Source: an uncultured Bacilli bacterium
GTDB lineage: Bacteria > Bacillota_I > Bacilli_A > RF39 > UBA660
Direction: 5' to 3'
Length of the DNA: 64,000 bases
Assembly (NCBI GenBank): GCA_934122275.1
Contig: CAKOWI010000001.1
Location: forward strand, 64,726 to 128,725
The position numbers and the translations under genes are program-made. Positions 8,860-24,400 of the stretch are shown piece by piece. The number at the start of each line of letters is the position of its first letter. The first letter of the stretch is position 1. A model generated the notes under the pieces. The model ran no database searches and was not told where the DNA came from. It saw nothing but the letters and a program-made list of their open reading frames with translations.

Positions 8860-9351
8860 TCATAAACATTCATATTCTTTTATACTTAATATCATATTAA
8901 TTACTTCATTTATAACTAACTTTTTATTTTCCATTCTACTCCCTTTAGTAGCCTCTACTTTAGAGTTATAATACCTATTATTATCTTTATCATATATAGA
9001 AATAAATACTATGTTATCTTCTCCGTAAGGATTATTTTTGTCCACTTTGTTTAACTTACCAGTAATTCCAACTCCTAAGTTACTGTTTGCAAACTTTGCT
9101 ATATTATAACTCATTTCATTTGCTGTTTGAATACTATAAACAGAGTATTTATCTATTATATCCTTTGATACACCCATCTTGATTTTATATTCATTTGAAT
9201 AAGTTACCGCACTAAACTTAATTATATCAGATGCACCTTCTATATTAGTAATAGCATTAGCTACTCCACCACCAGTGCAAGATTCCATCGTTGATATCGT
9301 TTTATTATTTTCTTTTAGTTTTTCCACCAAGTATTTTGCATCCATTTTCAT
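8860..9351 (-). CDS. pncC: nicotinamide-nucleotide amidohydrolase (CinA C-terminal / PncC domain)
   Basis: 163 aa. N-terminal LVEKLKENNKTISTMESCTGGG matches the PncC signature (..ESCTGG..). Its start overlaps the upstream gene by 47 nt. Confidence 0.8.
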   Translation of the reverse strand: MKMDAKYLVEKLKENNKTISTMESCTGGGVANAITNIEGASDIIKFSAVTYSNEYKIKMGVSKDIIDKYSVYSIQTANEMSYNIAKFANSNLGVGITGKLNKVDKNNPYGEDNIVFISIYDKDNNRYYNSKVEATKGSRMENKKLVINEVINMILSIKEYECL

Positions 9352-10177
9352 TTATCCTTTCGTTAAATTTATTTAGTATGTCATTAAAGTAATCTGGTAT
9401 ATATTTTTTTATTTCTTCTTTAATTTCTTTAGGGATTCCATAAAATTGTTCTGAAATGGATCCTACCATACATGCTATTGTATCAGCATCCCCTCCTATG
9501 GAAATTGCCTTTCTAATTGAATCTTCAAAGTCATTAGATTCTAAAAATACATATATAGCTTGAGGAACAGATGAGATAGCTCTACTTGTAAATTCATAAT
9601 TTTCTTGCAAATCTTTTAAGTCAAAATCAAGACTAAAATAATTATCTTCTATATATGATTTTATCTCTTCTTTAGAACTATTATTCTTAGCCATAAAAAT
9701 AGCTACCGAAAGAGCTTCGGCACACAAAATAGCCTCTCTATTGTTATGTGTTGGAATGGTTGCTTCATAAACTTCTTTTTTCAGCTCTTCTACATCATCA
9801 ATTAAGACTGGTAATGAGCTTATTCTCATAGCACAACCGTTTCCGTAACTACCATTTAATTCTTGGTTATAAAGCCAGTTTACAAAACCCTTACCAAACC
9901 TACTTCTACCATATAAGTCAAGACCTTTTTGTACTTCTCTTAAACCATATTCCCTCAAACATTCTGCGTAACTTTTTCCGTTTAAATAAGCATCCGCTAC
10001 TGCAATGGTTAAAATACTATCATCTGTTACTGATGAGGATTTTGGAAACAAAGGAATACTCCTATTTAAAACCATTCTTCTTTCTTCTGCACTTACTTTA
10101 CTTTTCTTTAGTTTTTCTAATACTTCTTTTACCTCATAAGTAGAGCCTGCACAATCACCTATTATTGCACCTAGCAT
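9305..10177 (-). CDS. ADP-ribosylglycohydrolase family protein (DraG/ARH-like)
   Basis: 290 aa. N-terminal GAIIGDCAGSTYE and C-terminal GGDADTIACMVGSI match the two metal-binding signature regions of the ARH family. Confidence 0.8.
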   Translation of the reverse strand: MLGAIIGDCAGSTYEVKEVLEKLKKSKVSAEERRMVLNRSIPLFPKSSSVTDDSILTIAVADAYLNGKSYAECLREYGLREVQKGLDLYGRSRFGKGFVNWLYNQELNGSYGNGCAMRISSLPVLIDDVEELKKEVYEATIPTHNNREAILCAEALSVAIFMAKNNSSKEEIKSYIEDNYFSLDFDLKDLQENYEFTSRAISSVPQAIYVFLESNDFEDSIRKAISIGGDADTIACMVGSISEQFYGIPKEIKEEIKKYIPDYFNDILNKFNERINENGCKILGGKTKRK

Positions 10178-10194
10178 AAAATCACCTTCTTTAA

Positions 10195-10755
10195 TTACAT
10201 ATATAAGCCTTTTTCCTTTATATATTCTAACACAAAGTTATCTATATAACGATTATTTTTGCTTAGTTTATTATTTTTAATCATGTTTCTAATCATTGTA
10301 GAAGATACATCTAAAATAGGTAAATCATATACGATTTTATAATTTTCTATTTTATATTTTTTTACATAGCATTTAATATTTATATCGCCTCTGTTTATTA
10401 TAATAAGTTCATGCTTTAATAAGTTCTTATAATCGTGCCATTTGTTAAAATTTACTATATTATCTGCTCCAATAATTAGTGAATAACAATTATTATCCAT
10501 TGATAAGTCATCAAAGATTAAAGAAGTATACGTATAATTATTATGTTTTTGATCTATAATGATGTTTTTATTTTTATACATCTTAAGCATATTTATTCTG
10601 TCATTTGTACTTATTAGGTCGTTTTTATTCCAATAATTACCAGTTGGAATTATAAGAACCTTATCTACGTATTTATTTTCAATTAAATGATTAACTATTT
10701 TAATATGTCCTTTATGTACCGGATTAAAACTTCCTACGTATACTCCTATTTTCAT
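10195..10755 (-). CDS. nadD: nicotinate-nucleotide adenylyltransferase
   Basis: 186 aa with GSFNPVHKGH (the GxFxPxHxGH nucleotidyltransferase motif) and a C-terminal SST.IR motif (VSSTMIRN). Confidence 0.9.
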   Translation of the reverse strand: MKIGVYVGSFNPVHKGHIKIVNHLIENKYVDKVLIIPTGNYWNKNDLISTNDRINMLKMYKNKNIIIDQKHNNYTYTSLIFDDLSMDNNCYSLIIGADNIVNFNKWHDYKNLLKHELIIINRGDINIKCYVKKYKIENYKIVYDLPILDVSSTMIRNMIKNNKLSKNNRYIDNFVLEYIKEKGLYM

Positions 10756-10757
10756 AA

Positions 10758-11525
10758 TTAGATGCTCCTTTTATATGTTGGAATGTTAAACTTATGCAAA
10801 TTATTATTATGAAGTTTTTCTATCTTTTTTCTTGTTGTTTCATCAACTTTCTTTTTATCTTCCATATAATCTGCAATATCGCTATATTTAACTCCTATTT
10901 TATCCTCATCAGTTTGATTAGATAATCCATCACTTGGTGCTTTATAAAGCACTTTTTCTGGTACTTTTAAATACTTTCCAATTTTAATTACTTCTTCAAC
11001 CGTAAAATCTGCAATTGGTGAAATATCGTGAACTGAATCCCCACCTTTAGTAAAGTATCCAACGTATAATTCACATTTATTTGAAGTGCCCGCAACTATA
11101 TATGGTTTTCCTTTTATGCTTGTATAAAGTGCTGCTAAGTAATATAAAGTAGTCATTCTAAGTCTTGGTTTAGCATTTATATCACTGTTTTTAGTTTCAT
11201 CACTATTAAATTTTCCTAATTTATCTGCTTCCTTTTTTAATGCATCAAAGGTACTTGTAATATCCATGTTAACTAGTTCAAATCCATAATAGTCGCTAAT
11301 TAATTTTGCGTCAGACTTATCCTCTTCATTTGAATGGCAAGGCATTGTAACTCCTAATACATTTTCCTTTCCAAGTGCTTTTGTAAATAATGCTGATACA
11401 ACAGCACTATCTTTACCACCTGAAATACCAATAACGGCACCTTTCAAATTATTTTCCTTATAATAGTTTCTAATAAACTTAATTATGTTATTTGTTTCTC
11501 TTTTAACATCAAATTCTTTTTTCAT
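10758..11525 (-). CDS. nadE: NH3-dependent NAD+ synthetase
   Basis: 255 aa with the PP-loop GISGGKDSAV (SGGxDS). Confidence 0.9.
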   Translation of the reverse strand: MKKEFDVKRETNNIIKFIRNYYKENNLKGAVIGISGGKDSAVVSALFTKALGKENVLGVTMPCHSNEEDKSDAKLISDYYGFELVNMDITSTFDALKKEADKLGKFNSDETKNSDINAKPRLRMTTLYYLAALYTSIKGKPYIVAGTSNKCELYVGYFTKGGDSVHDISPIADFTVEEVIKIGKYLKVPEKVLYKAPSDGLSNQTDEDKIGVKYSDIADYMEDKKKVDETTRKKIEKLHNNNLHKFNIPTYKRSI

Positions 11526-11529
11526 CTTT

Positions 11530-12126
11530 TTATCTTCCCTTCTTTATATATTTTTTAGCTCTATTAAGTGCAATTATCGCATTACAGCCTTCAATGTAAT
11601 TCATATCAACAAGTTCTAGAGCCTCATCATAAGTGCATTCAAAATATTTTATATATTCGCCTTCATCTAGGTTTTGATTTTTAAGCCACCTGCACCCGGT
11701 TGCAAGAAACGTTTCATTATATGCTGAAGAGCATCCCATATCCTGATAAAAACCGCCCATATTAGTTAACTTATCTGGAACTAAGCCTGTTTCTTCTTCT
11801 AACTCCCTTAATGCAGCAACATAAGAATCTTCACCATCTTCTATGTATCCAGCTGGAACACCTATCCCAACAGTTCTTTTAGAAAACACTCTAGGTTCAA
11901 CGGTTAATACAACGTTATTATCAGATGTAACAGGTAGTATTATTGCAGCACTACCATCTTTATTATTTTTAAGTATCTTTTCTCTAGTTATTATTTTATC
12001 GTTATTTAAACGGCACCTATAAACTTCGCTTCTAATAAACTTAGGTTCTTTAGTAAGTTTTTCTTTTTTTATTGTTTTTAAACTATCAATTATTTTTTCT
12101 AACTCTTCTATTTTTTCTTTTCTCAT
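11530..12126 (-). CDS. NUDIX hydrolase, probable ADP-ribose pyrophosphatase
   Basis: 198 aa with a complete Nudix box GYIEDGEDSYVAALRELEEETGL, located in the NAD operon. Confidence 0.75.
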   Translation of the reverse strand: MRKEKIEELEKIIDSLKTIKKEKLTKEPKFIRSEVYRCRLNNDKIITREKILKNNKDGSAAIILPVTSDNNVVLTVEPRVFSKRTVGIGVPAGYIEDGEDSYVAALRELEEETGLVPDKLTNMGGFYQDMGCSSAYNETFLATGCRWLKNQNLDEGEYIKYFECTYDEALELVDMNYIEGCNAIIALNRAKKYIKKGR

Positions 12127-13610
12127 TTTTTAGCACCTAAACTTTTAGCATATCCACTGTTTTCTATTGCAGTTTCACTAACCTTTCTAGTTGCATCATA
12201 AAGCATATACTCTTTTAACTCTCTTTCCTTTTCACTTAAATCAACATAATATGTATGAGGATTAGAAATGTCAGTTATTCTATCAGTTAAAGTTTCAAAC
12301 TCGCTATCACAATATCTTTTCCTTTCTTCTATGCTAGGAATATTATAAACTAACTTACCATCTTTAAATATTGGAACCTGTAATTCTCTTACGTAATAAT
12401 CTTCAATTTCCGTTTTCTTCCATGGATCTTTATCACTAACTAAAGTATATTTATCAAGAGGAATTTTCTCATCACTAGTTGCTATTACATCTCCTAAAAC
12501 TTTTTGTGTATCCGCATCATAAAACCTATATACCTTCTTGTATCCCGGGTTAGTAGTTTTAACCGTGTCTCCAGATACTTTTACCTTTGGTAATATTTTT
12601 CCATCTTTTTCTATTGCAACTAATTTATATACGCCGCCTACTCTTTCCTTTGCTGCCGCAATATTATCTCCAGCACCAATAGAATCTATTTTTGCTCCTT
12701 TATTTAAGTAATCTTTTATACTATATTCATTAAGACCGTTGGATAAACAAATCTTTGCATCATTAAAGCCTGCATAATCAAGCATTTCTCTAGCTGCTTT
12801 TGATAAATAAATTAAGTCACCTGAATCTATTCTTATTCCTTTTAATTTATAACCATTAGGTATTAAATACTCTTTTGCAACACGAATTGCATTTGGAATA
12901 CCACTTTTTAAAGTATCATAAGTATCAACTAAGAATACACAGTTATCAGGATTACTTTTAGCATATGCCATAAACGCTTCATATTCCGTATCAAAAGCCT
13001 CAATCATACTATGTGCCATTGTTCCCATTGCTGGGATGTTATACTCTTTAGCAGCATATACGTTTGACGTTCCAACACATCCTCCGATGTATGCATACTT
13101 ACTTGCTTCGTTAGCTGATGATGTACCTCTTGCTCTTCTTGCTCCAAACTCCATTACTGGAATGTTTTTAGCTTCGTTTGTAATTCTTTTCGCAGCAGTT
13201 GTAACTAAAGATGCATGATTGAAGTGTGCTAGTATTGCTGTTTCAATTATTTGTGCTTCTATTATAGGAGCTCTAACCGTAATTACTGGTTCATTTGGAA
13301 ATACAGGAGTACCATCTAAAACAGCACTTATATCACCCGTAAATTTCAAATTCTTAAGGTATTTTAAGAATTCTTCACTAAGGCCTTCCTTTCTTAAATA
13401 GTCTATGTCTTCATCAGTGAATTTAAAGTTTTTAATATACTCTATTATGTTATCAAGACCATTTGATATAGTGTATCCTCCTTTAAATGGATTTGCTCTA
13501 AAAAACACATCAAAGTATGCTATATCATCTTTCTTTCCATTTTCAAAATAAGTTTGTGACATTGTAAGTTCATAAAAATCAGTCACCATAGTTTCGTTAT
13601 TATTTTTCAT
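12123..13610 (-). CDS. pncB: nicotinate phosphoribosyltransferase
   Basis: 495 aa. N-terminal TDFYELTMSQTYF and the central MEFGARRARG block are typical of Firmicute NAPRTase. Confidence 0.9.
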   Translation of the reverse strand: MKNNNETMVTDFYELTMSQTYFENGKKDDIAYFDVFFRANPFKGGYTISNGLDNIIEYIKNFKFTDEDIDYLRKEGLSEEFLKYLKNLKFTGDISAVLDGTPVFPNEPVITVRAPIIEAQIIETAILAHFNHASLVTTAAKRITNEAKNIPVMEFGARRARGTSSANEASKYAYIGGCVGTSNVYAAKEYNIPAMGTMAHSMIEAFDTEYEAFMAYAKSNPDNCVFLVDTYDTLKSGIPNAIRVAKEYLIPNGYKLKGIRIDSGDLIYLSKAAREMLDYAGFNDAKICLSNGLNEYSIKDYLNKGAKIDSIGAGDNIAAAKERVGGVYKLVAIEKDGKILPKVKVSGDTVKTTNPGYKKVYRFYDADTQKVLGDVIATSDEKIPLDKYTLVSDKDPWKKTEIEDYYVRELQVPIFKDGKLVYNIPSIEERKRYCDSEFETLTDRITDISNPHTYYVDLSEKERELKEYMLYDATRKVSETAIENSGYAKSLGAKK

Positions 13611-13683
13611 TATTATCGTCCCTTCTTTTTAACATTTTATTAATACCAGATTATATTTTTTTAAGACCTATTTTTGGTCCTTT

Positions 13684-14265
13684 CTATTTATATTTTTTTA
13701 ATATTTTTACGCCAGCTTGACCCATAAGTTTATAAGCCATACTGTTATACTCATCTCTATTATGATTTATAGCATCATAAGTATCACAAGCATTAGTTGG
13801 TACTATAACTTTAACATTCATATCATTTTCATCAAAGTAATTTACAAGTGGTATAGCAAGATTCATAACACATATATCAGTACATCCTCCAGCTAACACC
13901 ACTTCCTTTAAGTTTTTCATACCACTTATATCACTCATAAAATTAGGAGCAAAAATGGATGATGTTGAATTTTTCTTATAAACGTTATCTTCATCTACGT
14001 ACCTATAAAATTCATCTACGATTAATGCTTCACTAGTACCTTCTATACAATGTTCAGGAAATTTTAGAAATTCCTTACTATTTTTATGGTGAGATTCTTT
14101 TATAAAAATTACTTTATCATCATTTTTTATAAATTTTTCTATCAGGCTTTCTATCTCTGGTATTAATGCTTTCATATAAGGTGTATGCATAACCCCTTCC
14201 TTTGTAAAGCCATTAACCATATCAACAACAATTAACATTTTTTCAATATCTTCCGCTCTCTTCAT
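13684..14265 (-). CDS. pncA: isochorismatase-family hydrolase, probable nicotinamidase
   Basis: 193 aa with LIVVDMVNGF (Asp), a conserved Lys region and the catalytic Cys in AGGCTDICV. It is the first gene of the NAD salvage operon. Confidence 0.75.
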   Translation of the reverse strand: MKRAEDIEKMLIVVDMVNGFTKEGVMHTPYMKALIPEIESLIEKFIKNDDKVIFIKESHHKNSKEFLKFPEHCIEGTSEALIVDEFYRYVDEDNVYKKNSTSSIFAPNFMSDISGMKNLKEVVLAGGCTDICVMNLAIPLVNYFDENDMNVKVIVPTNACDTYDAINHNRDEYNSMAYKLMGQAGVKILKKYK

Positions 14266-16586: not shown

Positions 16587-16690
16587 CTCTTAAGTATTTT
16601 ATCACATAAATGTAAATTATTCATTTATATTTTATTATATTCTATATATATAACATATTTGTACGATTTTATTACCTAATATGATTATTT

Positions 16691-16719
16691 TTGTTAATTT
16701 TAATTTAGTATGATATAAT
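16691..16719 (+). promoter_or_regulatory. sigma-A promoter driving the retron ncRNA and RT
   Basis: TTGTTA (16691-16696), a 17-nt spacer, then the extended -10 TGATATAAT (16711-16719). The predicted start falls at about 16725, at the a1 repeat. Confidence 0.6.
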
Positions 16720-16723
16720 AAGA

Positions 16724-16884
16724 ATGCAGTAGTGATTGGAATTATTTTCCTACTTTAACGAGTCGTTAAGGGACTAAATTAATTAAGACGATTAAATAGT
16801 AATACTTCAAAGGACTAACCTACACGTACGTGTAGAAGCTTCGCTTAAGTCCATTTCCATATTACTATATTGTTAGTACTGCAT
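16724..16884 (+). ncRNA. retron msr-msd non-coding RNA (candidate)
   Basis: a1 ATGCAGTA (16724-16731) is the perfect reverse complement of a2 TACTGCAT (16877-16884). There are msr-like hairpins at 16738-16750 and 16755-16769. A long imperfect msd hairpin is formed by 16796-16804 / 16860-16868 and GGACT/AGTCC (16812-16816 / 16848-16852), with the apex palindrome CTACACGTACGTGTAG (16820-16835). It lies directly 5' of a retron-type RT. Confidence 0.6.
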
Positions 16885-16901
16885 ATAAAGGAGGTAGTAA
16901 A

Positions 16902-17849
16902 ATGTGGAAATACATAACAAAAAAAGAATGTAACCTATTTTTACTATCTCTTAACTTATTTAATTGTAAAGAAAAAAAGAAATATATAAAAACTATTTAT
17001 TCTATTAGTAATAACGTAGAAAAAAACTACAAAGTCTATAGAATTAGAAAAAGAAATGGAAAATATAGAACCATATATGAGCCTAACAATATTTTAAAAC
17101 AAATTCAAAAAAGAATTTTATGTAATATACTTAATAATAAGTCAATCTCAAAATATGCCAAAGCATATTATAGAGGAGCTAGTTTAAAAGAAAATGCAGT
17201 TAAACATATTAATAAAGAACTTATCTTAAAACTAGATATTAAAGATTTTTTTGAAAACATAACTTTTTTTAATGTTTATGACTCATCTTTTCCTATAGAA
17301 TACTTTCCTAAATCTGTTGGTATGCTTTTAACTTATTTATGTACTTATAATAATCACTTACCACAAGGTTCACCAACTTCTGCCTATATATCCAATTTAG
17401 TTATGAAAGAATTTGACGATGAAATAGGTTCTTGGTGTGATGAAAACAATATATCATACACAAGATATTCGGATGATATGACTTTTTCTGGTAATTTTAA
17501 TCCTAAATATGTTATAGAGAAAGTTAGAAAAATGTTATATAAACTAGGATTAAGTTTGAATAATGATAAAATACATGTAATAAATAAATCACAAAGTCAA
17601 AGTGTTACTGGAATTGTAGTAAATGAAAGAATCCAAACAAGCAAAAAATATAGAAACAAAATAAGGCAAGAAATATATTATATTAGAAAATTTGGTTTAA
17701 TTTCTCATTTAAAAAGATGTAATATTAATGTTAATTATGAAAAGTATTTAAACTCACTATATAGTAAAATTCTCTATGTTTTACAAATTGATCCAACTAA
17801 TAGCGAATTTATACTATACAAAGAATTTATCAAAGATTTAAAAAGATAA
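16902..17849 (+). CDS. retron-type reverse transcriptase
   Basis: 315 aa. RT motifs LPQGSPTSAYISNL and RYSDDMTFSG (YxDD), plus the retron-specific NAxxH (NAVKH) and VTG (QSVTGIVVNE). RBS AAAGGAGG. No maturase, endonuclease or other fused domain. Confidence 0.85.
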   Translation: MWKYITKKECNLFLLSLNLFNCKEKKKYIKTIYSISNNVEKNYKVYRIRKRNGKYRTIYEPNNILKQIQKRILCNILNNKSISKYAKAYYRGASLKENAVKHINKELILKLDIKDFFENITFFNVYDSSFPIEYFPKSVGMLLTYLCTYNNHLPQGSPTSAYISNLVMKEFDDEIGSWCDENNISYTRYSDDMTFSGNFNPKYVIEKVRKMLYKLGLSLNNDKIHVINKSQSQSVTGIVVNERIQTSKKYRNKIRQEIYYIRKFGLISHLKRCNINVNYEKYLNSLYSKILYVLQIDPTNSEFILYKEFIKDLKR

Positions 17850-17990
17850 CTCTTTTATAATTTTTATTTATGACTATTGGCACTCATTTGAATCATTCTA
17901 TATAAATACTATGTGATTACTTGGAATATATATGAGCACCTATATCCAGGCACAAAAAATAACTTAATAAACAAAATTAATTAATATATT

Positions 17991-18021
17991 AAAAACCCTT
18001 ATTTTATAAGGGTTTATTTTT
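17991..18021. terminator. bidirectional rho-independent terminator
   Basis: Stem AAACCCTTA (17993-18001) / TAAGGGTTT (18007-18015), flanked by an A-run and a T-run. Confidence 0.7.
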
Positions 18022-18024
18022 ATA

Positions 18025-18138
18025 TGGAGCGAATCACATACATGTTACGAACTAAGTTCTCTTTCTAAAAATATTATATATGTATTGTTATTAAATTTCA
18101 ATAGGCATATGGAAAAAAATGCACTTATATAGTATAAT
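18025..18138 (+). repeat. cassette left-end module L1 (tRNA-Gly 3'-end core TGGAGC + conserved promoter region)
   Basis: TGGAGC-N14-TTACGAAC-N6-CTCTTTC-N6-TATTATATA...TTCAA...TATGG...TATAAT. It is collinear with 22323-22438, with the -10 at offset about 108-110 in both copies. Confidence 0.75.
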
Positions 18139-18177
18139 TTTTATAGTTTAAAATTAGTAAAAGTTCGGAGGATATAT

Positions 18178-19599
18178 ATGAAGATAGGAATAGATATAGA
18201 TAATGTTCTATCTAATTTTAATGATGTATTATTAAACGAATATAAGAAACATGATAATGCAATAAATGGCAAAGGTATAGTTCATCAAGATTTATATATT
18301 AGAGATATGTTTAATTGGGATAAAGAATATGAAAAAAATTTTTATAAAGAAAATATTGAGTATTTTGCAAGCCTATTTGAACCGATTGAAGAATGTTCTA
18401 AATATGTAAAATTATTAAAAGAAGAAGGAAATACAATTTATATCATTAGTGGTCGAGATAATGGTGAATATTCTAACCCATATAAAATGACCATTGATTG
18501 GTTAAAAAAATATGATATTGTTTATGATAAATTATTTTTAGTAGATGCTTATAATAGTCATTCAAAAACAGAAATATGTATAGAATACAATATTGATGTA
18601 ATGATAGATGATTCTAAAAGAATGTGTAAGGACATAAAGGATAATGGTATTAGAGCATTACTTATGGATACACCATATAATAGAGATACAAATGAATTTG
18701 AAAGAGTTAATTCATGGAAAGAAATTTATAACAAATTATCTAACAAAAAAATTAATGTGATACTTGATACAGATACTTATAATGAATGTGATGACCAATT
18801 TGCATTAGCCTATTTAATTAAGTCACAAGATATGTTTAATATTGAGGCAATTACAGTAGCACCATATTCTCATACAAAAAGAGATGTAAAAGTAAAAGAT
18901 GGACAAGAATTAAGTTATAATGAAATTTTAAAGATATGTAATTGGTTAAACTTTGATACAAATAATAAGGTGTTTAAAGGTTCAATGGATTACATTCAAA
19001 ACGGTTATGATGAGAAAAATGATGCTGTAAATAAAATTATAGAAATTGCTTTAAAAAATAATAAAACTTATATATTAGGGATTGGTGCTATTACTAATAT
19101 TGCTTTAGCAATAAAAAAAGAACCAAAAATAGTAAACAAAATAGAAATTATTTGGTTAGGTGGCAATGAACTTGGCTACAAAGATAACCTTGAATACAAT
19201 TTTAGACAAGATGTTGAAGCAGTAAAAATAGTATTTGAGTCAAAAGCGAAGTTAATTATACTTCCTTGTAAAAATATTGTTTCAGAATTAAGAATTGATA
19301 TTAATACTTTAAAAAAATATTTAGAAAACAAATCAGAATTGTGTAAGTATTTAATTGAAAGATTTTATAATGATGGATATCATGGAATACAAGAATCAAG
19401 AGTAATATGGGACATAGCTGTTATAGCCTACATGATAAATAAAAATTGGTTTGAAACGAAACAAATAAGTTGTCCAAATATAAGAAAGGATACTTCTTAT
19501 GAAGTGACGGACAATAGACATAGTATTACTTTTGTTACTAAATTGGATAGAGACAAAATATACAAAGATTTATTTGAGAAACTAGGTGAATTGCAATGA
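18178..19599 (+). CDS. fusion protein: HAD/NT5C-type 5'(3')-deoxyribonucleotidase + IUNH-type nucleoside hydrolase
   Basis: 473 aa. N-terminus MKIGIDIDNVLSNF (HAD motif I DxDxV as in NT5C-family deoxyribonucleotidases) with DD later (VMIDDS). The C-terminal half starts VILDTDTYNECDDQFALAYL, which is the nucleoside hydrolase aspartate cluster DxDxxxDD. Confidence 0.75.
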   Translation: MKIGIDIDNVLSNFNDVLLNEYKKHDNAINGKGIVHQDLYIRDMFNWDKEYEKNFYKENIEYFASLFEPIEECSKYVKLLKEEGNTIYIISGRDNGEYSNPYKMTIDWLKKYDIVYDKLFLVDAYNSHSKTEICIEYNIDVMIDDSKRMCKDIKDNGIRALLMDTPYNRDTNEFERVNSWKEIYNKLSNKKINVILDTDTYNECDDQFALAYLIKSQDMFNIEAITVAPYSHTKRDVKVKDGQELSYNEILKICNWLNFDTNNKVFKGSMDYIQNGYDEKNDAVNKIIEIALKNNKTYILGIGAITNIALAIKKEPKIVNKIEIIWLGGNELGYKDNLEYNFRQDVEAVKIVFESKAKLIILPCKNIVSELRIDINTLKKYLENKSELCKYLIERFYNDGYHGIQESRVIWDIAVIAYMINKNWFETKQISCPNIRKDTSYEVTDNRHSITFVTKLDRDKIYKDLFEKLGELQ

Positions 19600-20129
19600 G
19601 CAGAATAACTTTAATAACATATTTTGATGAAAAGCAATTAGATATAATTAGTAAATTTTTAGAAAACATCAATTTGAAAATGTGTAAAGTTCCTTATGGT
19701 ATAAATGATAATAAAAGGTATGAAATTGATAATCTACCATATCATTTTACAATATTTGCAACAGATAAAATAAATCAAAATAAGTTATTAGAAATTGCAA
19801 AAAACACAAAAATGAAAAAAATAAAATTAAAAATTAATAAAGTAAAAATCGAAAATATTAAAAATGGTAGTTTTATTCTATATTTTGGAATTGAAGATAA
19901 TTGTTTTATGAAAAATCTGCAAAGGAATTTTTATGAAGTAATACCAGAAGAAAAATATAATCCTGACAATTTTAATTTTCATATGACTTTACATATAGAT
20001 AAAAGTTTTAATATAGTAAATAATCTAATTGAAATGATACAATTAAAATTTAAACCATTTTCTATTGAATTTAATAAACTAACATTATATGATTACCCTG
20101 GTGAAATAATTGAAACTATTGAATTTTAA
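19596..20129 (+). CDS. 2H phosphoesterase superfamily protein (LigT/CPDase-like)
   Basis: 177 aa with two HxT/S motifs at the expected spacing (LPYHFTIF and FNFHMTLH). Its start overlaps the upstream stop (ATGA), implying translational coupling. Confidence 0.65.
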   Translation: MSRITLITYFDEKQLDIISKFLENINLKMCKVPYGINDNKRYEIDNLPYHFTIFATDKINQNKLLEIAKNTKMKKIKLKINKVKIENIKNGSFILYFGIEDNCFMKNLQRNFYEVIPEEKYNPDNFNFHMTLHIDKSFNIVNNLIEMIQLKFKPFSIEFNKLTLYDYPGEIIETIEF

Positions 20130-20157
20130 AAAAATATTAGTAAATAAGGTGGTATAA

Positions 20158-20766
20158 ATGAAACTAAATAGTAAAGAAGCAAGAAAGCTTTTAGAAAAAG
20201 AAAGAGTTAATCAAAAAGATGATAGATGGATAGAACACTGTATATCTGTAGGTGATAGTGCTGGAAGAATTGCTAAAGCATTAAGTGAAAATAAAATTAA
20301 TGTGGACATAGATAAAGCAATTACTCTAGGGTATTTACATGATATTGGCAAGTATAATGGAGAGTCACAGGGACATGTTATGAGAGGATATGAATACTTA
20401 AAAAATAAAGGTTATGATGATGAATATGCTAACATCTGTTTGACTCATTCATATTTAAATAATGATGTAGTGTGTACAGCTGGAGGAGTTCCAAATCCAA
20501 ATGATAATACATTTTTAACAAACTTTATAAAAAATCATGAATATACTATAGAAGAAAAAATAATAAATTTATGTGATTTGATGTGTCCACAAGGAAATAA
20601 AGTATTTACAATTGATAAAAGGTTGGTTGATATAATGATTAGAAGAGGCACATATTCTAATACTCAATATCATATTAAAGAAACATATAAATTAAAAGAA
20701 TATTTTGATAATCTGTTAGGATATAATCTGTATGACTTGTTTCCGAAAATAAAAGAAAATTTATAA
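20158..20766 (+). CDS. HD-domain metal-dependent phosphohydrolase
   Basis: 202 aa with H...HD signature residues (IEHCISV ... LGYLHDIGKY ... H..LTHSY). Confidence 0.75.
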   Translation: MKLNSKEARKLLEKERVNQKDDRWIEHCISVGDSAGRIAKALSENKINVDIDKAITLGYLHDIGKYNGESQGHVMRGYEYLKNKGYDDEYANICLTHSYLNNDVVCTAGGVPNPNDNTFLTNFIKNHEYTIEEKIINLCDLMCPQGNKVFTIDKRLVDIMIRRGTYSNTQYHIKETYKLKEYFDNLLGYNLYDLFPKIKENL

Positions 20767-20966
20767 AAGGAATTGGGAACTTCCTATAATAGAATTTGTT
20801 TGTGAGTACGAATTCATTGCTGTCTAGACATAGATTTTATTCCCATATTTTCTAAAAAATCAAAAAGAGGATTAAATTATTTTCGTAATTTTTTCCTCTT
20901 TTTGATATTATTTATTATAAAATAACTCACGAACTTTTAAGCCCGTAAGTTGATTTCAAATGGAGC
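20767..20966 (+). repeat. cassette right-end module R1 (terminator module ending in the TGGAGC core)
   Basis: About 200 bp, collinear with 24127-24332 at roughly 75-80 percent identity by eye (GGGAA.T..CC.ATAAT.GAATTTGT...GAGTAC.GATTCA.TGCTG.CTAGACATAGATTTTA ... ACGAAC..TTAAG.CCGTAAGTTGATTTCAAATGGAGC). It contains the hairpin AAAGAGGA/TCCTCTTT plus a T-run. Confidence 0.8.
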
Positions 20967-21108: not shown

Positions 21109-21843
21109 TTATTTATTAGCTATATCTATTAAATTTTCAAAATATCTAACCCTATTATCTAATGTAATTTTTATTTTATTACTATTTATCAATCTGTTTA
21201 TTAAATAAACATACAGTATATCATGTAGATATATGTTTTGTATTAATCTTCCCACTAGTTCGCATATCTTAACTTTACCCATTGATTTTAAAGTGTCTAT
21301 AATATAATCATCATAAAAATCTATTGAAACTGATTTAACATTTCCAGAATCAATCACTCTTAAGTCAGAATTTTCATCAATTAATTTGTTCCAAATATTT
21401 ACATTGTTATTTATTTCTTCATTTGTTAATTTATGCTCTAATTCAGATAAATTTTTTAGTTCTTCTTCTCTCATTACGCTAGGAGATGGATAATCATTAT
21501 TATAATCATCACAATATAGAACATATAATTCATAGTTATAATCTTTTATAATACTGCAAACATATAACATAATTAAATATGAATAAATGTCTTTTCTACC
21601 AGTCCATACTCTTATTTTATTTTTTTGTTTTATGTTATCAATAATAACATTATATTCTTGTTCAAAATTGATACTTTTGTCTTCTAAGCATAATTCTTTT
21701 GGTATACTAATTTTATGATTTCTACAATTAGATAAATCCCCTACATTAAATAAGACATTTAGCATTAGCATATTATCATTAAGTTTACTGTTTTTCATAG
21801 TATAGTAACAAGAATTTCCAAATATTATTTCCAAAGTATTCAT
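21109..21843 (-). CDS. DUF1835-like protein, unknown function
   Basis: 244 aa. The N-terminus LEIIFGNSCYYTMKNS resembles the DUF1835 start (hIvFG.SaaGsLK). This is a weak call from memory of the family. Confidence 0.4.
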   Translation of the reverse strand: MNTLEIIFGNSCYYTMKNSKLNDNMLMLNVLFNVGDLSNCRNHKISIPKELCLEDKSINFEQEYNVIIDNIKQKNKIRVWTGRKDIYSYLIMLYVCSIIKDYNYELYVLYCDDYNNDYPSPSVMREEELKNLSELEHKLTNEEINNNVNIWNKLIDENSDLRVIDSGNVKSVSIDFYDDYIIDTLKSMGKVKICELVGRLIQNIYLHDILYVYLINRLINSNKIKITLDNRVRYFENLIDIANK

Positions 21844-22322
21844 CTTTTAACAACTCCAATCATTCTCATAAATTACTATTTGTGCATCACTTTTATAATC
21901 TAATTATACTACTTTTTGATGTGTTTTAATAGTATCATTAACATATGTAATCTTCTAGTTCTACTAATTTAATTTTTTTACTTAAATTACCTATGTAAAT
22001 ATCAGTAGAGTAATTAAATGCTAGAAAAGTAGTATCATTTATAATGATTTTATGCGATTCTAGGTAGTTCAAATTAGTGTTGTTAATACGTTTGATACTA
22101 CATACTACCATTGATAATCTTTGATGTAGTGTGGCAAAACTCACAAATAAACTCTATACGTTGTTTTAAACTACTTTCCATTTCTAACTTTTGTGTAGTA
22201 AACTTTATCATAAAATGCACCATCCTTTCTTGGTTAATTCTTCTGTAAACACAAAAAATCAACCTGAACGGATTGATATATATGTTAAGTTTAAACTCTA
22301 AAAGTTCGAACAGATTCCTCAA

Positions 22323-22438
22323 TGGAGCATTTAAGCTACAGCTTACGAACCACAATGCTCTCTTTCCAAATTTATTATATAGTAATCCCCATATTTTTTC
22401 AAGGAAGTATGGGAATTTTTTGTATTTTATTGTATAAT
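22323..22438 (+). repeat. cassette left-end module L3 (TGGAGC core + conserved promoter region)
   Basis: TGGAGC-N14-TTACGAAC-N7-CTCTTTC-N6-TATTATATA...TTCAA...TATGG...TGTATAAT, homologous to 18025-18138. Confidence 0.75.
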
Positions 22439-22468
22439 AATTTCAAGAAATATCTTGGAGGTAAAAAC

Positions 22469-23272
22469 ATGACTGATGAAGCATTAGAAATCACAAAAGA
22501 AGTAGCAAAAGTTGTTGCAAAAGATTTATATAATGATGGATTAAAAGGAACTGTAACTCAAACAGGAGCAATAGTAGAATCTATTGTTGGATTATTCAAT
22601 AATGTAGTTTTTTATCCAGTAAAAAAAGCAAATGCATTATTTAAATATAAACTAGAAGATTTCAAAAATGATTTAGAAACTAGACTGAATTCTCTTCCTG
22701 ACGATAAGATAGTAGAACCCGATTTAATGGTAGCAGGTCCTGCATTAGAATCATTAAAATATACATATGATAAAGAAGAACTTAGGAATATGTATTTAAA
22801 TTTACTAGTATCTTCTATGAACAAAGATACTAAGGATAAAGCACATCCTAGTTATGTAGAAATAATTAAGCAATTAACGCCACTAGATGCTAAAGTTTTT
22901 AAAAGATTAAATGATGTCGGACAGGTTGCTTGTGCACATCCAGTTTTAAAACTTGATAATACAAATAAAGTTTACGTTTCTGCATATCCTAATTATATAG
23001 TAGAAGAATTACTTGATTTAGGTGATGAATTTGATATATCAGCATCTGTTTCTAATTTAATAAGACTAGGTTTAATTCATCATGAAGATAACAGTATAAA
23101 TGGTTATAATTATGAAAAATTTAAAAGTTTCGATATTATTATTAGAAATAAGCAAAAGCTAGATAACCTGAATAATTCTGAAGGAAATGGAATAACTACC
23201 AGTGTAGAAATTCAAAAGCAAGTTATTATGAAAAATAATTTTGGTGAACGCTTTGCTGATACTTGCTTATAA
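22469..23272 (+). CDS. Abi-alpha (DUF4393)-like abortive-infection family protein
   Basis: 267 aa from the ATG preceded by GGAGG. The pattern AKDLYNDGLKG..., PALESLKYTYDKEELRNMYLNLLVSSMN...AHPSYVEIIKQLTPLDAKVFKRL matches my recollection of the Abi_alpha consensus (..eelr..fanLLa......hPsf.eil.qLsp.eA..L). The track ORF start at 22322 lies in the repeat module and is rejected. Confidence 0.55.
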   Translation: MTDEALEITKEVAKVVAKDLYNDGLKGTVTQTGAIVESIVGLFNNVVFYPVKKANALFKYKLEDFKNDLETRLNSLPDDKIVEPDLMVAGPALESLKYTYDKEELRNMYLNLLVSSMNKDTKDKAHPSYVEIIKQLTPLDAKVFKRLNDVGQVACAHPVLKLDNTNKVYVSAYPNYIVEELLDLGDEFDISASVSNLIRLGLIHHEDNSINGYNYEKFKSFDIIIRNKQKLDNLNNSEGNGITTSVEIQKQVIMKNNFGERFADTCL

Positions 23273-23289: not shown

Positions 23290-24126
23290 ATGGACAAAAT
23301 AGCAATAATATCAGACATACATGGTAATTTAGAAGCATTAAAATCAGTATTAGATGACGTTAAAGAAAGAAATATAAATAGAATATTTTGTCTTGGGGAT
23401 ATAATTGCAAAAGGAACTCATCAACAAGAGTGTGTTGATTTAGTTAAAGAAAATTGTGATGTTATGCTTAGAGGTAATTGTGATGAATATTTTACTAGTG
23501 ATATTGATTTATTAACTAAAACACAATCAGAAGTAGATAGAATATTTTGGAACAAAAATAAATTAAATGAAGAAACTAGAAAATATTTAAGTAATTTACC
23601 TTATTGTTATGAATTTTATTTGAGTGGTAGACTTGTAAGATTAGTTCATGCACATCCTGAAAAAATAGATAAATTTGTAGGAAATATAGATAAAATTGAT
23701 AGATTGTATGAATTGTTTTTGACAAGTTCTAATACGATTTCTGATAAGAAAGCTGATGTTTTAATATATGGTCATATACATACTCCATATATTCAAAAAA
23801 TATATAATAGAACGATTATAAATACAGGCTCTGTTGGTAATGCTATTGATGTCTTTAGAAATGATGAAAAAGATGGAGATGTTAAAAATACAACTGTAGC
23901 TAATTATTTAATTTTATCTGGTAACTTTAATTCTAAAAATATTGATGAAAAAATTTCGTATGAACTAGTATGTGTACCTTATGATATAGATATGGAATTA
24001 AATGATAATGATGACAATATTGAATTTGAATCATATGAAGAAGAAATTAGAAAAGGCAAATACAGGGATATGGCGAAGATTTATAAAAGTTTTGAATTAA
24101 GAGGTATAGACAAGGATAAAATATAG
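23290..24126 (+). CDS. calcineurin-like metallophosphoesterase
   Basis: 278 aa with motifs ISDIHGN, LGDIIAKG, RGNCD and YGHIHTP. RBS GGGAGG. Confidence 0.8.
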   Translation: MDKIAIISDIHGNLEALKSVLDDVKERNINRIFCLGDIIAKGTHQQECVDLVKENCDVMLRGNCDEYFTSDIDLLTKTQSEVDRIFWNKNKLNEETRKYLSNLPYCYEFYLSGRLVRLVHAHPEKIDKFVGNIDKIDRLYELFLTSSNTISDKKADVLIYGHIHTPYIQKIYNRTIINTGSVGNAIDVFRNDEKDGDVKNTTVANYLILSGNFNSKNIDEKISYELVCVPYDIDMELNDNDDNIEFESYEEEIRKGKYRDMAKIYKSFELRGIDKDKI

Positions 24127-24332
24127 AAAATAAGGGTATGGGAATTGCCATAATGGAATTTGTACGGGAGTACAGATTCAGTGCTGGCTAGACATAGATT
24201 TTACTTTCAAATTTAAAAATATAAAAAAAGAAGATTAAATTATTTTGATAATTTTTCCCTCTTTTTTTATAGTATTTATATAAAATAAAAACTTACGAAC
24301 AATTAAGTCCGTAAGTTGATTTCAAATGGAGC
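24127..24332 (+). repeat. cassette right-end module R3, abutting and including the tRNA-Gly 3' end
   Basis: Homologous to 20767-20966. It ends in TGGAGC, which here is the genuine 3' end (GCTCCA) of tRNA-Gly. Confidence 0.8.
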
Positions 24333-24400
24333 AGGTGAGGAGAATCGAACTCCCGTATCAAGCTTGGAAGGCTTGGGTTCTACCATTAAACTACACCTGC
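24327..24400 (-). tRNA. tRNA-Gly (anticodon TCC), CCA encoded
   Basis: Reverse complement: GCAGGTG acceptor, anticodon arm CAAGC-CTTCCAA-GCTTG, T-arm GGGAG-TTCGATT-CTCCT, then CACCTGC-T-CCA. Confidence 0.9.

Follow-up and report, generated by a model that had tools for sequence, protein, structure and literature searches.

The stretch of DNA analyzed here, a 64,000-nucleotide segment of contig CAKOWI010000001.1 from an uncultured Bacilli bacterium (hereafter the window), carries a three-gene operon encoding a fusion of a 5'(3')-deoxyribonucleotidase module to a nucleoside hydrolase module (gene 1), a 2H phosphoesterase (gene 2) and an HD-domain phosphohydrolase (gene 3). Together with a promoter module and a terminator module of their own, these genes form a self-contained unit of transcription that is exchanged horizontally; the unit lies immediately downstream of a retron. 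Comparison overall with approximately 170 related loci, containing either the fusion or a relative of the retron reverse transcriptase (RT), shows that the conserved unit is made up of two genes, the fusion and the 202-residue HD protein, with the 2H gene as an interchangeable, optional filler of the slot between them, and that retron and cassette are independent modules. From the domains and their usual companions, the balance inclines slightly toward the cassette being an accessory nucleotide catabolism, salvage or house-cleaning module of cytosolic hydrolases.

The DNA of the window is of low GC content (∼22–33%), and the three genes lie on the same strand (Table 1). The stop codon of gene 1 and the ATG of gene 2 (at 19596) overlap as ATGA (19596–19599, read from the sequence), by which gene 2 is translationally coupled to gene 1. 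Ribosome-binding sites were found ahead of gene 1 (GGAGG) and gene 3 (AAGGTGG), and a promoter scan placed a sigma-70-like site (TGGAAA-17-TATAAT) at 18110–18138. An intrinsic terminator parts the operon from the RT gene upstream, and a long A/T-flanked hairpin lies 3' of gene 3 (20862–20903). An earlier note on this DNA had called the three open reading frames (ORFs), the four domains with their catalytic motifs and the ATGA overlap; all four domains and the fusion were recovered by Pfam, and the catalytic motifs, rather than being degenerate, are intact and conserved on alignment.

Both modules of gene 1 score above the Pfam gathering cut-offs of their families, NT5C (PF06941) and IUNH (PF01156). 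The N-terminal module retains HAD motifs I–IV (DIDNV with Asp6 and Asp8; Ser/Thr91; Lys130; Asp144–Asp145), which are invariant in 12 aligned fusions, and it also has weaker matches to the PNKP-type HAD phosphatase. As HAD motif I begins at residue 6, the protein is predicted to be cytosolic. In the C-terminal module the Asp cluster and the calcium and ribose ligands are kept, with Asp197, Asp199, Asp205, Asp206, Glu339, Asn341, Asp345 and Asp412 all conserved in the alignments. The Asp motif contains a two-residue insertion, giving D-[ST]-D-T-[FY]-N-E-x-D-D (here DTDTYNECDD), and a Trp before Asp412 aligns with the position of the catalytic His of IU-NH. The Trp-type hydrolase is presumably 'purine-like'. 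All NCBIfam equivalog models for the hydrolase module scored far under their cut-offs.

A search of 5.8 billion proteins with the fusion gave 4246 matches, the best 120 of which are 74–96% identical to it, and all but a few of these 120 contain both Pfam domains. In the GTDB one-genome-per-species set there are 391 relatives; the best 80 are full-length (63–97% identity) and come from metagenome-assembled genomes of uncultured gut 'Bacilli', 'Tenericutes', 'Clostridia' and 'Clostridium sp. CAG', with humans, rabbits, deer, chickens and mice as hosts. At the level of 50% clusters, approximately 10 full-length fusion clusters were found, down to 31% identity, together with hundreds of stand-alone hydrolases from the same subfamily as the gene 1 module. 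These distributions indicate that the fusion is a genuine family and no frameshift artefact. Stand-alone relatives at 33% identity to the module also contain the D-[ST]-D-T-[FY]-N-E-x-D-D and VIWD motifs, and one of them belongs to a Klebsiella plasmid operon with the order PfkB kinase, hydrolase, NupC-like transporter and OmpK.

The assignment of gene 2 relies mainly on its fold. Pfam gave a borderline match to LigT_PEase (24.5 bits against a cut-off of 23.3) and a match to 2_5_RNA_ligase2 below the cut-off (24.7 against 27), and a sequence search of the PDB returned nothing useful, only fold comparison being informative. The two HxT motifs are H50-F-T52 and H129-M-T131, where His50, Thr52 and His129 are invariant and Thr131 nearly so in 34 homologues. 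The AlphaFold model has a mean predicted local distance difference test score (pLDDT) of 93.4, and its top folds in the PDB are all 2H proteins, including YjcG (2d4g) and Escherichia coli LigT (5ldm), with template modelling (TM) scores of 0.6–0.7; the Arabidopsis ADP-ribose cyclic phosphate (Appr>p) cyclic phosphodiesterase (1jh6/1fsi) is also similar, with TM scores in the same range. Two HxT motifs on a 2H fold place gene 2 within the 2H superfamily, and the model indicates a phosphoesterase of YjcG/LigT/cyclic phosphodiesterase (CPDase) type. A search for the family gave 240 matches, and elsewhere its members lie between argS and prfA, where they are coupled to a Nudix gene, or follow an NT5C(-GNAT) gene and a 397-residue gene without a Pfam match. 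A role in RNA end-healing, pairing the 2H protein with a PNKP-like HAD, was considered and rejected, as the NT5C match is far stronger and the fused nucleoside hydrolase would have no polynucleotide role.

Gene 3 is matched by Pfam HD (PF01966) with an E-value of 3.4e-11 (43.9 bits against a cut-off of 22), and the H...HD...D metal ligands, His27, His61–Asp62 and Asp140, are invariant in 16 HD homologues. The best 120 homologues are 83–99% identical, nearly all of them exactly 202 residues long. The model is all-helical (pLDDT of 81), and Foldseek returned weak, non-discriminating matches to PgpH, a YqeK-like 'NAD-metabolism' HD protein, SP1746 and YfbR (best E-value of 8.5e-3, TM <0.5). The TIGR00295, HDIG and YqeK models all gave scores below or near their cut-offs, and a sequence search of the PDB with gene 3 gave nothing useful.

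To establish which genes accompany the fusion, ORFs were called in 87 other fusion loci and the window and searched with the window proteins, 83 of the loci being non-redundant. In 59 of the 83 the HD gene lies downstream of the fusion on the same strand within five genes, and in 37 it directly adjoins the fusion. The 2H gene was found in only four fusion loci (the window, L016, L054 and L067), each time between the fusion and the HD gene. As the 2H gene is rare and the HD gene recurrent, the functional core consists of two genes. The three-gene functional unit put forward in the earlier note was not upheld by these counts, and of the partners whose co-occurrence it proposed to survey only the HD protein recurs; the 2H partner is rare, and the RT adjoins the fusion only in the lineage of the window. 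Elsewhere, the position between fusion and HD is taken by a 177-residue histidine phosphatase (His_Phos_1), GNATs, a YgjV-type membrane protein, a KTI12-like P-loop protein, an MFS transporter or a second HD protein.

The flanking genes that recur include a stand-alone NT5C (17 loci), four families of polytopic membrane or MFS-like proteins of ∼400 residues (19, 8, 7 and 7 loci), an ABC ATPase with ABC-2 permeases (12 loci), GNATs (9 and 7 loci), NADAR-HD (4 loci) and a class A beta-lactamase (4 loci), with Nudix proteins also found in some loci. The transporters often encoded near the fusion (MFS-like, YgjV or ABC) are of unassigned specificity, and no ribokinase or phosphoribosyltransferase (PRTase) partner recurs. 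HMUDK_hel proteins are encoded upstream of the fusion in six loci; these are stand-alone proteins of 311 residues, nearly the whole length of which is taken up by the '5-hmdU DNA kinase helical domain' (PF18723, E-value of 8e-108), as at L068:12300–13235 and L024:5516–6451. In a very prevalent gut organism, from which a single HD sequence appears in 437 collection blocks, the gene order is Fic–GNAT–peptidase–MFS–x–x–fusion–HD–(NT5C-GNAT). The last of these is a 352-residue NT5C-GNAT fusion, which adjoins the fusion–HD pair (L201–L205, 7618–8676; L104, 3748–4809) as well as 2H homologues, and is a further undescribed domain combination in these arrays.

If the cassette serves nucleotide catabolism, the HD protein, and here the 2H protein, would convert phosphoanhydride or cyclic/2'-3' phosphodiester forms to mononucleotides, the HAD domain would strip the phosphate from the mononucleotide, and the Ca-type nucleoside hydrolase domain would split the resulting (probably ribo-) nucleoside into base and ribose. 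The purpose could be salvage, or the house-cleaning and detoxification of surplus or non-canonical nucleotides in gut Bacillota with small genomes. In the strain of the window, the 2H phosphoesterase has entered the fusion–HD slot by recombination. The earlier note had read the same chemistry from the operon, running from phosphodiester to mononucleotide, nucleoside and base, and this is reasonable; the order of the reactions, the substrates and the physiological role are those that we infer from the domain content. A catabolic module is preferred to an infection-triggered effector because the enzymes appear constitutive and lack sensors, because their usual companions are small nucleotide or phosphate hydrolases and transporters, and because stand-alone relatives of the hydrolase are found in the Klebsiella nucleoside-utilization operon described above. 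The view that the operon is not in a salvage context, also taken in the earlier note, was overstated, given those relatives in nucleoside uptake and kinase operons and an NrtR regulon close upstream in the window.

Several observations weigh against the catabolic reading. The unit is accessory and mobile, lying in a strain-variable hotspot at tRNA-Gly and being mosaic between species, and is not a core salvage gene; its neighbors in the window are a retron on one side and an Abi-alpha cassette on the other; and no HD gene is nearby in 24 of the 83 non-redundant loci. The reaction assigned to the HD protein is the least constrained step and a guess, because gene 3 has no close solved relative, and the substrates of all three proteins are putative. 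In addition, IUNH enzymes normally need the ribose hydroxyls and NT5C enzymes prefer deoxynucleotides, and because of this difference in sugar preference any channelling between the two domains of gene 1 is putative.

The NrtR regulon is a complete NAD-salvage cluster on the minus strand (8860–14265), ∼4 kb upstream of the cassette, with genes for NrtR, CinA, an ADP-ribosylglycohydrolase, NadD, NadE, a Nudix protein, PncB and PncA, followed by cotJC and cotJB. A counterpart of this cluster is present at L088 (1104–7364). In the prevalent relative (L201–L205) cotJB and cotJC likewise lie near the fusion, at a distance of ∼5 kb, a hint that some synteny of the array position may persist. Given this neighborhood, the fusion might turn nicotinamide or nicotinate mononucleotide into the riboside and then into nicotinamide or nicotinate, feeding the PncA–PncB route, although such a role in NAD/ADP-ribose recycling seems quite unlikely; a part for the 2H and HD proteins in processing ADP-ribose cyclic phosphate or dinucleotides is improbable to the same degree. 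Besides the cluster in the window, a PncA-to-NrtR operon lies ∼2 kb upstream of the fusion in another locus (L082), and YgjV (which we take to be related to PnuC), NADAR-HD and Nudix neighbors occur in some loci. By fold, the 2H protein resembles the plant Appr>p phosphodiesterase, and one of the weak matches to the HD protein carries the annotation of a NAD-metabolism HD hydrolase. However, NAD genes are nearby in only 2 of 88 loci and in neither do they belong to the same operon: the cluster in the window is on the opposite strand and parted from the cassette by the cotJ genes, a CNNM/CBS gene and the retron, and in L082 two unrelated genes intervene.

The boundaries of the cassette are formed by two conserved modules. 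The promoter module recurs ahead of the fusion and also ahead of unrelated genes. The terminator module, aligned from 19 copies in related loci, contains an ∼80-nt element with a conserved hairpin, GAAUUUGU...ACAAAUUC, that shows a few compensatory changes, followed by the long hairpin of a bidirectional terminator (20862–20903), a second hairpin (20924–20951) and then GATTTCAAATGGAGC; a palindrome, TGGGAAyTTCCCA, is also present. A pseudoknot is compatible with the alignment of the terminator module and was not significant against shuffled sequences (50/500), and Rfam searches of the cassette and its surroundings, at gathering and at relaxed thresholds, returned only tRNAs. The two copies in the window (20767–20966 and 24127–24332) are 82% identical. 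Across 27 sources the modules recur, always in the same orientation and often several to a locus, and enclose units that hold one to four genes, in the pattern PROM-genes-TERM-PROM-genes-TERM. Module-bounded arrays of this kind were seen in related gut Bacillota loci, among them L023, L070, L016, L034 and L063. A match to ATGGAGCGA at 18024 was considered as a third tRNA-Gly remnant or att site and rejected, since it is only 6–9 nt long and the beginning of the promoter module accounts for it better.

Sliding-window identity revealed that the operon is a mosaic. Positions 18000–18900 are ∼100% identical to a species representative that lacks the 2H gene (L008), and positions 18800–20600 are 96–100% identical to a different species representative that has it (L016). 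The 2H copy of L016 is 97% identical to that of the window, and the 5' half of its gene 1 is only 62–69% identical at the DNA level. The breakpoint falls inside gene 1, at approximately 18750–18900, near the domain boundary, and the operon of the window is a recombinant between segments matching two species. Consequently, the high similarity seen between 'species' is in part the result of gene flow and not of purifying selection alone. In a sister strain (L102), identity is 97% across ftsW and tRNA-Gly and is lost precisely at the 3' end of the tRNA; past this point the strain carries a different gene, with a HELAH zinc-protease-like motif. In other samples, contigs end either at tRNA-Gly or at the modules. 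The whole segment from 16.6 to 24.3 kb therefore looks like a strain-variable hotspot. The proposal of an exchangeable cassette with its own conserved promoter and terminator modules, made in the earlier note, is thus well supported by recurrence, mosaicism and strain variation, and Pfam and PADLOC confirmed the retron and the Abi-alpha gene as its neighbors.

Table 1. Coordinates of the cassette, its modules and adjacent features in the window
Feature	Position	Strand	Description	Evidence
Gene 1	18178–19599	+	473 aa; NT5C–nucleoside-hydrolase fusion	ORF list
NT5C module of gene 1	18184–18738	+	aa 3–187	Pfam E 2.6e-14; 53.9 bits, cut-off 24.8
IU_nuc_hydro module of gene 1	18757–19563	+	aa 194–462	Pfam E 2.7e-26; 93.4 bits, cut-off 34.2
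Gene 2	19596–20129	+	177 aa; 2H phosphoesterase	ORF list
Gene 3	20158–20766	+	202 aa; HD-domain phosphohydrolase	ORF list
Promoter module	18016–18177	+	162 nt; sigma-70-like site and GGAGG	Homology with fusion loci from 18013–18024
Terminator module	20767–20966	+	200 nt, starting at the HD stop codon	
Second terminator-module copy	24127–24332	+	After the Abi-alpha/metallophosphoesterase pair; ends in the tRNA-Gly 3' end	
tRNA-Gly	24327–24400	−	3' end overlapped by the second terminator-module copy	
Retron unit	16680–17860	+	Non-coding RNA region ∼16708–16901 and RT 16902–17849; own terminator 17993–18015	

The cassette that follows on the downstream side encodes a DUF1835+DUF3658 protein on the opposite strand (21109–21843, minus), Abi-alpha (22322–23272, plus; PDC-S47, E-value of 1.5e-59) and, 18 nt after the latter, a YfcE/NinI-like metallophosphoesterase (23290–24126, plus).

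On the upstream side, the RT is matched by the PADLOC model RT_Ec107-like (E-value of 4e-126). The ∼195 nt preceding it are conserved at 72–90% in 44 related loci, as expected for msr-msd. This putative non-coding RNA is flanked, in the manner of a1/a2, by the inverted repeat ATGCAGTA (∼16726) and TACTGCAT (∼16877), and a palindromic stem, CTACACGTACGTGTAG, lies within it. The earlier note had suggested that the operon could supply the missing effector of this retron. In favor of the three genes as its effector arm, they adjoin the RT on the same strand in the lineage of the window, the Ec107 branch has no specifically associated protein (Mestre et al. 2020, PMC7736814), and retrons of types II (NDT) and III (PRTase) use effectors resembling nucleotide-metabolism enzymes (PMC7736814). 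The adjacency, however, is not recurrent among RTs of the same clade. The retron RT is beside the fusion in none of the 87 other fusion loci, the arrangement of the window being seen otherwise only in a few metagenomes with identical sequence. Conversely, only 1 of 80 metagenomic loci of RT relatives (45–78% identity) has the fusion and HD genes, there upstream of the RT, and the 2H gene is near none of the 80, of which 47 have at least 2.5 kb of downstream sequence. Nor do RT, non-coding RNA and cassette form a single unit of transcription or inheritance: the terminator at 17993–18015 and the separate promoter module lie between them, and the homology block of the retron (∼16680–17860) does not touch that of the cassette, which starts at 18013–18024. 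The suggestion was not sustained; these co-occurrence data bring it close to refutation, so that a role as retron effector is extremely unlikely, and retron and cassette are independent modules that are neighbors by chance in one lineage.

A different partner is suggested by the relatives of the RT. In 17 loci with RTs 69–76% identical to that of the window, a 288-residue AAA_15/AAA_21 ATPase is encoded directly upstream of the non-coding RNA and RT instead (for example L113:2171–3037, cluster c6). PADLOC models for PtuA-, AriA- and retron I-B ATPase-like proteins recognize it, its gene is absent from the window, and it is a candidate partner for this Ec107-like branch, which has been described as orphan. 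The adjacent retron thus stays an orphan, with the small upstream ATPase as the likely partner in its relatives, and adjacency in a single genome should not be taken to denote a retron effector.

The question of a defence role independent of the retron was approached through PADLOC-DB v2, where genes 1 and 2 gave no model match and gene 3 only weak matches to Cas3-HD domains (E-value of 9e-5 or weaker), in agreement with the view of the earlier note that the combination is unclassified. A stand-alone anti-phage module that destroys non-canonical phage nucleotides or depletes nucleotides on infection is rather unlikely. What speaks for it is the presence of the retron and Abi-alpha (PDC-S47) in the same strain-variable array, the restriction-modification genes that sometimes adjoin 2H homologues, HMUDK_hel upstream of the fusion in six loci, and the occurrence in defence of HAD phosphatase effectors such as Chp, which carries CARF (PMC12715507). 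Chp differs in this respect from the three proteins, in which Pfam and NCBIfam detected no sensor, regulatory or toxin-type domain. Of the neighbor families, 121 recur in two or more fusion loci; few of these have PADLOC matches at 1e-8 (a count made without a matched background control), and the models matched are mainly generic, HTH and ABC-type ATPases, with PDC-S02 (2 families) and RmrA (2 families). The earlier inference of defence by association, drawn from adjacency in a single lineage, found no support in the comparison across loci, where the recurrent neighbors are mostly phosphatases, transporters, GNATs and Nudix proteins. The same arrangement is also stable in a very prevalent species, and the best 120 HD homologues show little divergence, to which gene flow across species could contribute.

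The fusion was absent from 50,697 phage records, where only NT5C-domain matches of ∼30% identity were found, and from plasmids, where only stand-alone hydrolases were found; in IMG/VR, two full-length matches were obtained among 2.9 million contigs. The 2H and HD proteins match no PHROG family, and a search of the literature for nucleoside hydrolases in defence islands or fused to a nucleotidase gave nothing relevant. There is a small chance that the fusion–HD(–2H) set is a sensor-less, constitutive defence or 'nucleotide-sanitising' cassette against non-canonical nucleotides, within an undescribed shuffling array; its targets might then be, for example, hypermodified phage deoxynucleoside monophosphate precursors or toxic analogues, and the array would bring it together with retron and Abi genes beside tRNA-Gly, which is about as improbable.

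The neighboring genes also bear on whether the cassette might confer resistance to nucleoside or nucleotide antimetabolites, toxic analogues produced by competitors, in which case the hydrolases would take the analogue apart, with GNATs and exporters modifying or expelling it. The arrays carry GNATs, the NT5C-GNAT fusion, a class A beta-lactamase and exporters of MFS-like and ABC-2 type; like resistance genes, the cassette is mobile and has a mosaic make-up; and a sensor-less enzyme may be tolerable if specific for an abnormal substrate. Such a function is nonetheless unlikely: NCBIfam gave no known resistance family at curated cut-offs, the neighbors are separate transcription units that differ between loci, and no candidate toxin is known.

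Degradation of signals is very unlikely, whether the 2H and HD proteins are taken to cleave cyclic oligonucleotides, cyclic mononucleotides, diadenosine tetraphosphate (Ap4A) or alarmones, with the fusion clearing the products, or the set is taken, just as improbably, to act as an immune off-switch or as counter-defence in the manner of phage Acb1. Entries for Acb1 are among the fold matches of the gene 2 model, at ranks 4, 9 and 15 in a search of BFVD, and the weak folds matched by the HD protein include PgpH (a cyclic di-AMP phosphodiesterase), YqeK and a small alarmone hydrolase. The analogy to Acb1 raised in the earlier note holds at the level of the fold and no closer, since the likeness is generic to 2H proteins and the housekeeping enzymes YjcG, CPDase and LigT match equally well or better. 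Moreover, the genes are cellular and not phage-borne, the recurrent neighbors included no gene of CBASS, Pycsar, type III CRISPR or Thoeris, and the cassette can do without the 2H gene.

Should the catabolic reading be correct, a very common and uncharacterized enzyme pair of human-gut Bacillota, a bifunctional nucleotidase-nucleosidase with a dedicated HD protein present in at least 80 and possibly ∼390 species-level genomes, would join the routes of nucleotide salvage or house-cleaning. This would help the metabolic reconstruction of uncultured gut bacteria with small genomes, and would not be conceptually new. The promoter- and terminator-bounded arrays are the more unusual finding and could merit a separate study. 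They share with integron cassette arrays short units parted by a conserved element right after the stop codon and a content that varies between strains and species. The resemblance is superficial only: each unit here brings a promoter module with it and can contain more than one gene, no integron integrase, attC structure or recombinase was identified, and ordinary homologous recombination could account for the exchange.

Compared with the nucleotide-targeting effectors of defence systems (the NDT of type II retrons, the PRTase of type III and Chp), the cassette has in common the nucleotide chemistry, a HAD phosphatase as in Chp and adjacency to a retron; it differs from them in lacking a sensor, conserved linkage to an RT, a signal of co-evolution and, for genes 1 and 2, a PADLOC match. 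Gene 3 shares the HD domain, the H...HD...D ligands and the all-helical structure with the small HD hydrolases (YqeK, YfbR, YpgQ, SP1746 and the HD domain of PgpH), and differs in being without a close solved relative or curated family. Gene 2 has the same fold as YjcG, LigT (ThpR) and plant CPDase at 11–16% sequence identity. With Acb1 the relationship is at superfamily level only, where 7t26 ranks 38th in the PDB (TM scores of 0.41/0.50), below YjcG and CPDase (0.65–0.70), and Acb1 is encoded by phages whereas the gene 2 family is found in cellular contexts and has no PHROG match. The hydrolase module resembles the IUNH enzymes (RihA/B/C, IU-NH and IAG-NH) in its full-length Pfam match, the Asp cluster, the E-x-N motif and the conserved Asp preceding the leaving-group pocket, and departs from them in having DTDTYNECDD in place of the canonical DxDxxxDD and Trp in place of His before Asp412. 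Residues 1–187 of gene 1 resemble the NT5C 5'(3')-deoxyribonucleotidases, including those of phages and prophages, in HAD motifs I–IV, with ∼30% identity to the Bacillus phage enzymes, and differ from that family in being fused to a nucleoside hydrolase. The kinds of enzyme that make up the cassette are thus known; what is undescribed is the fusion, accompanied by a dedicated HD protein and carried on a mobile unit.

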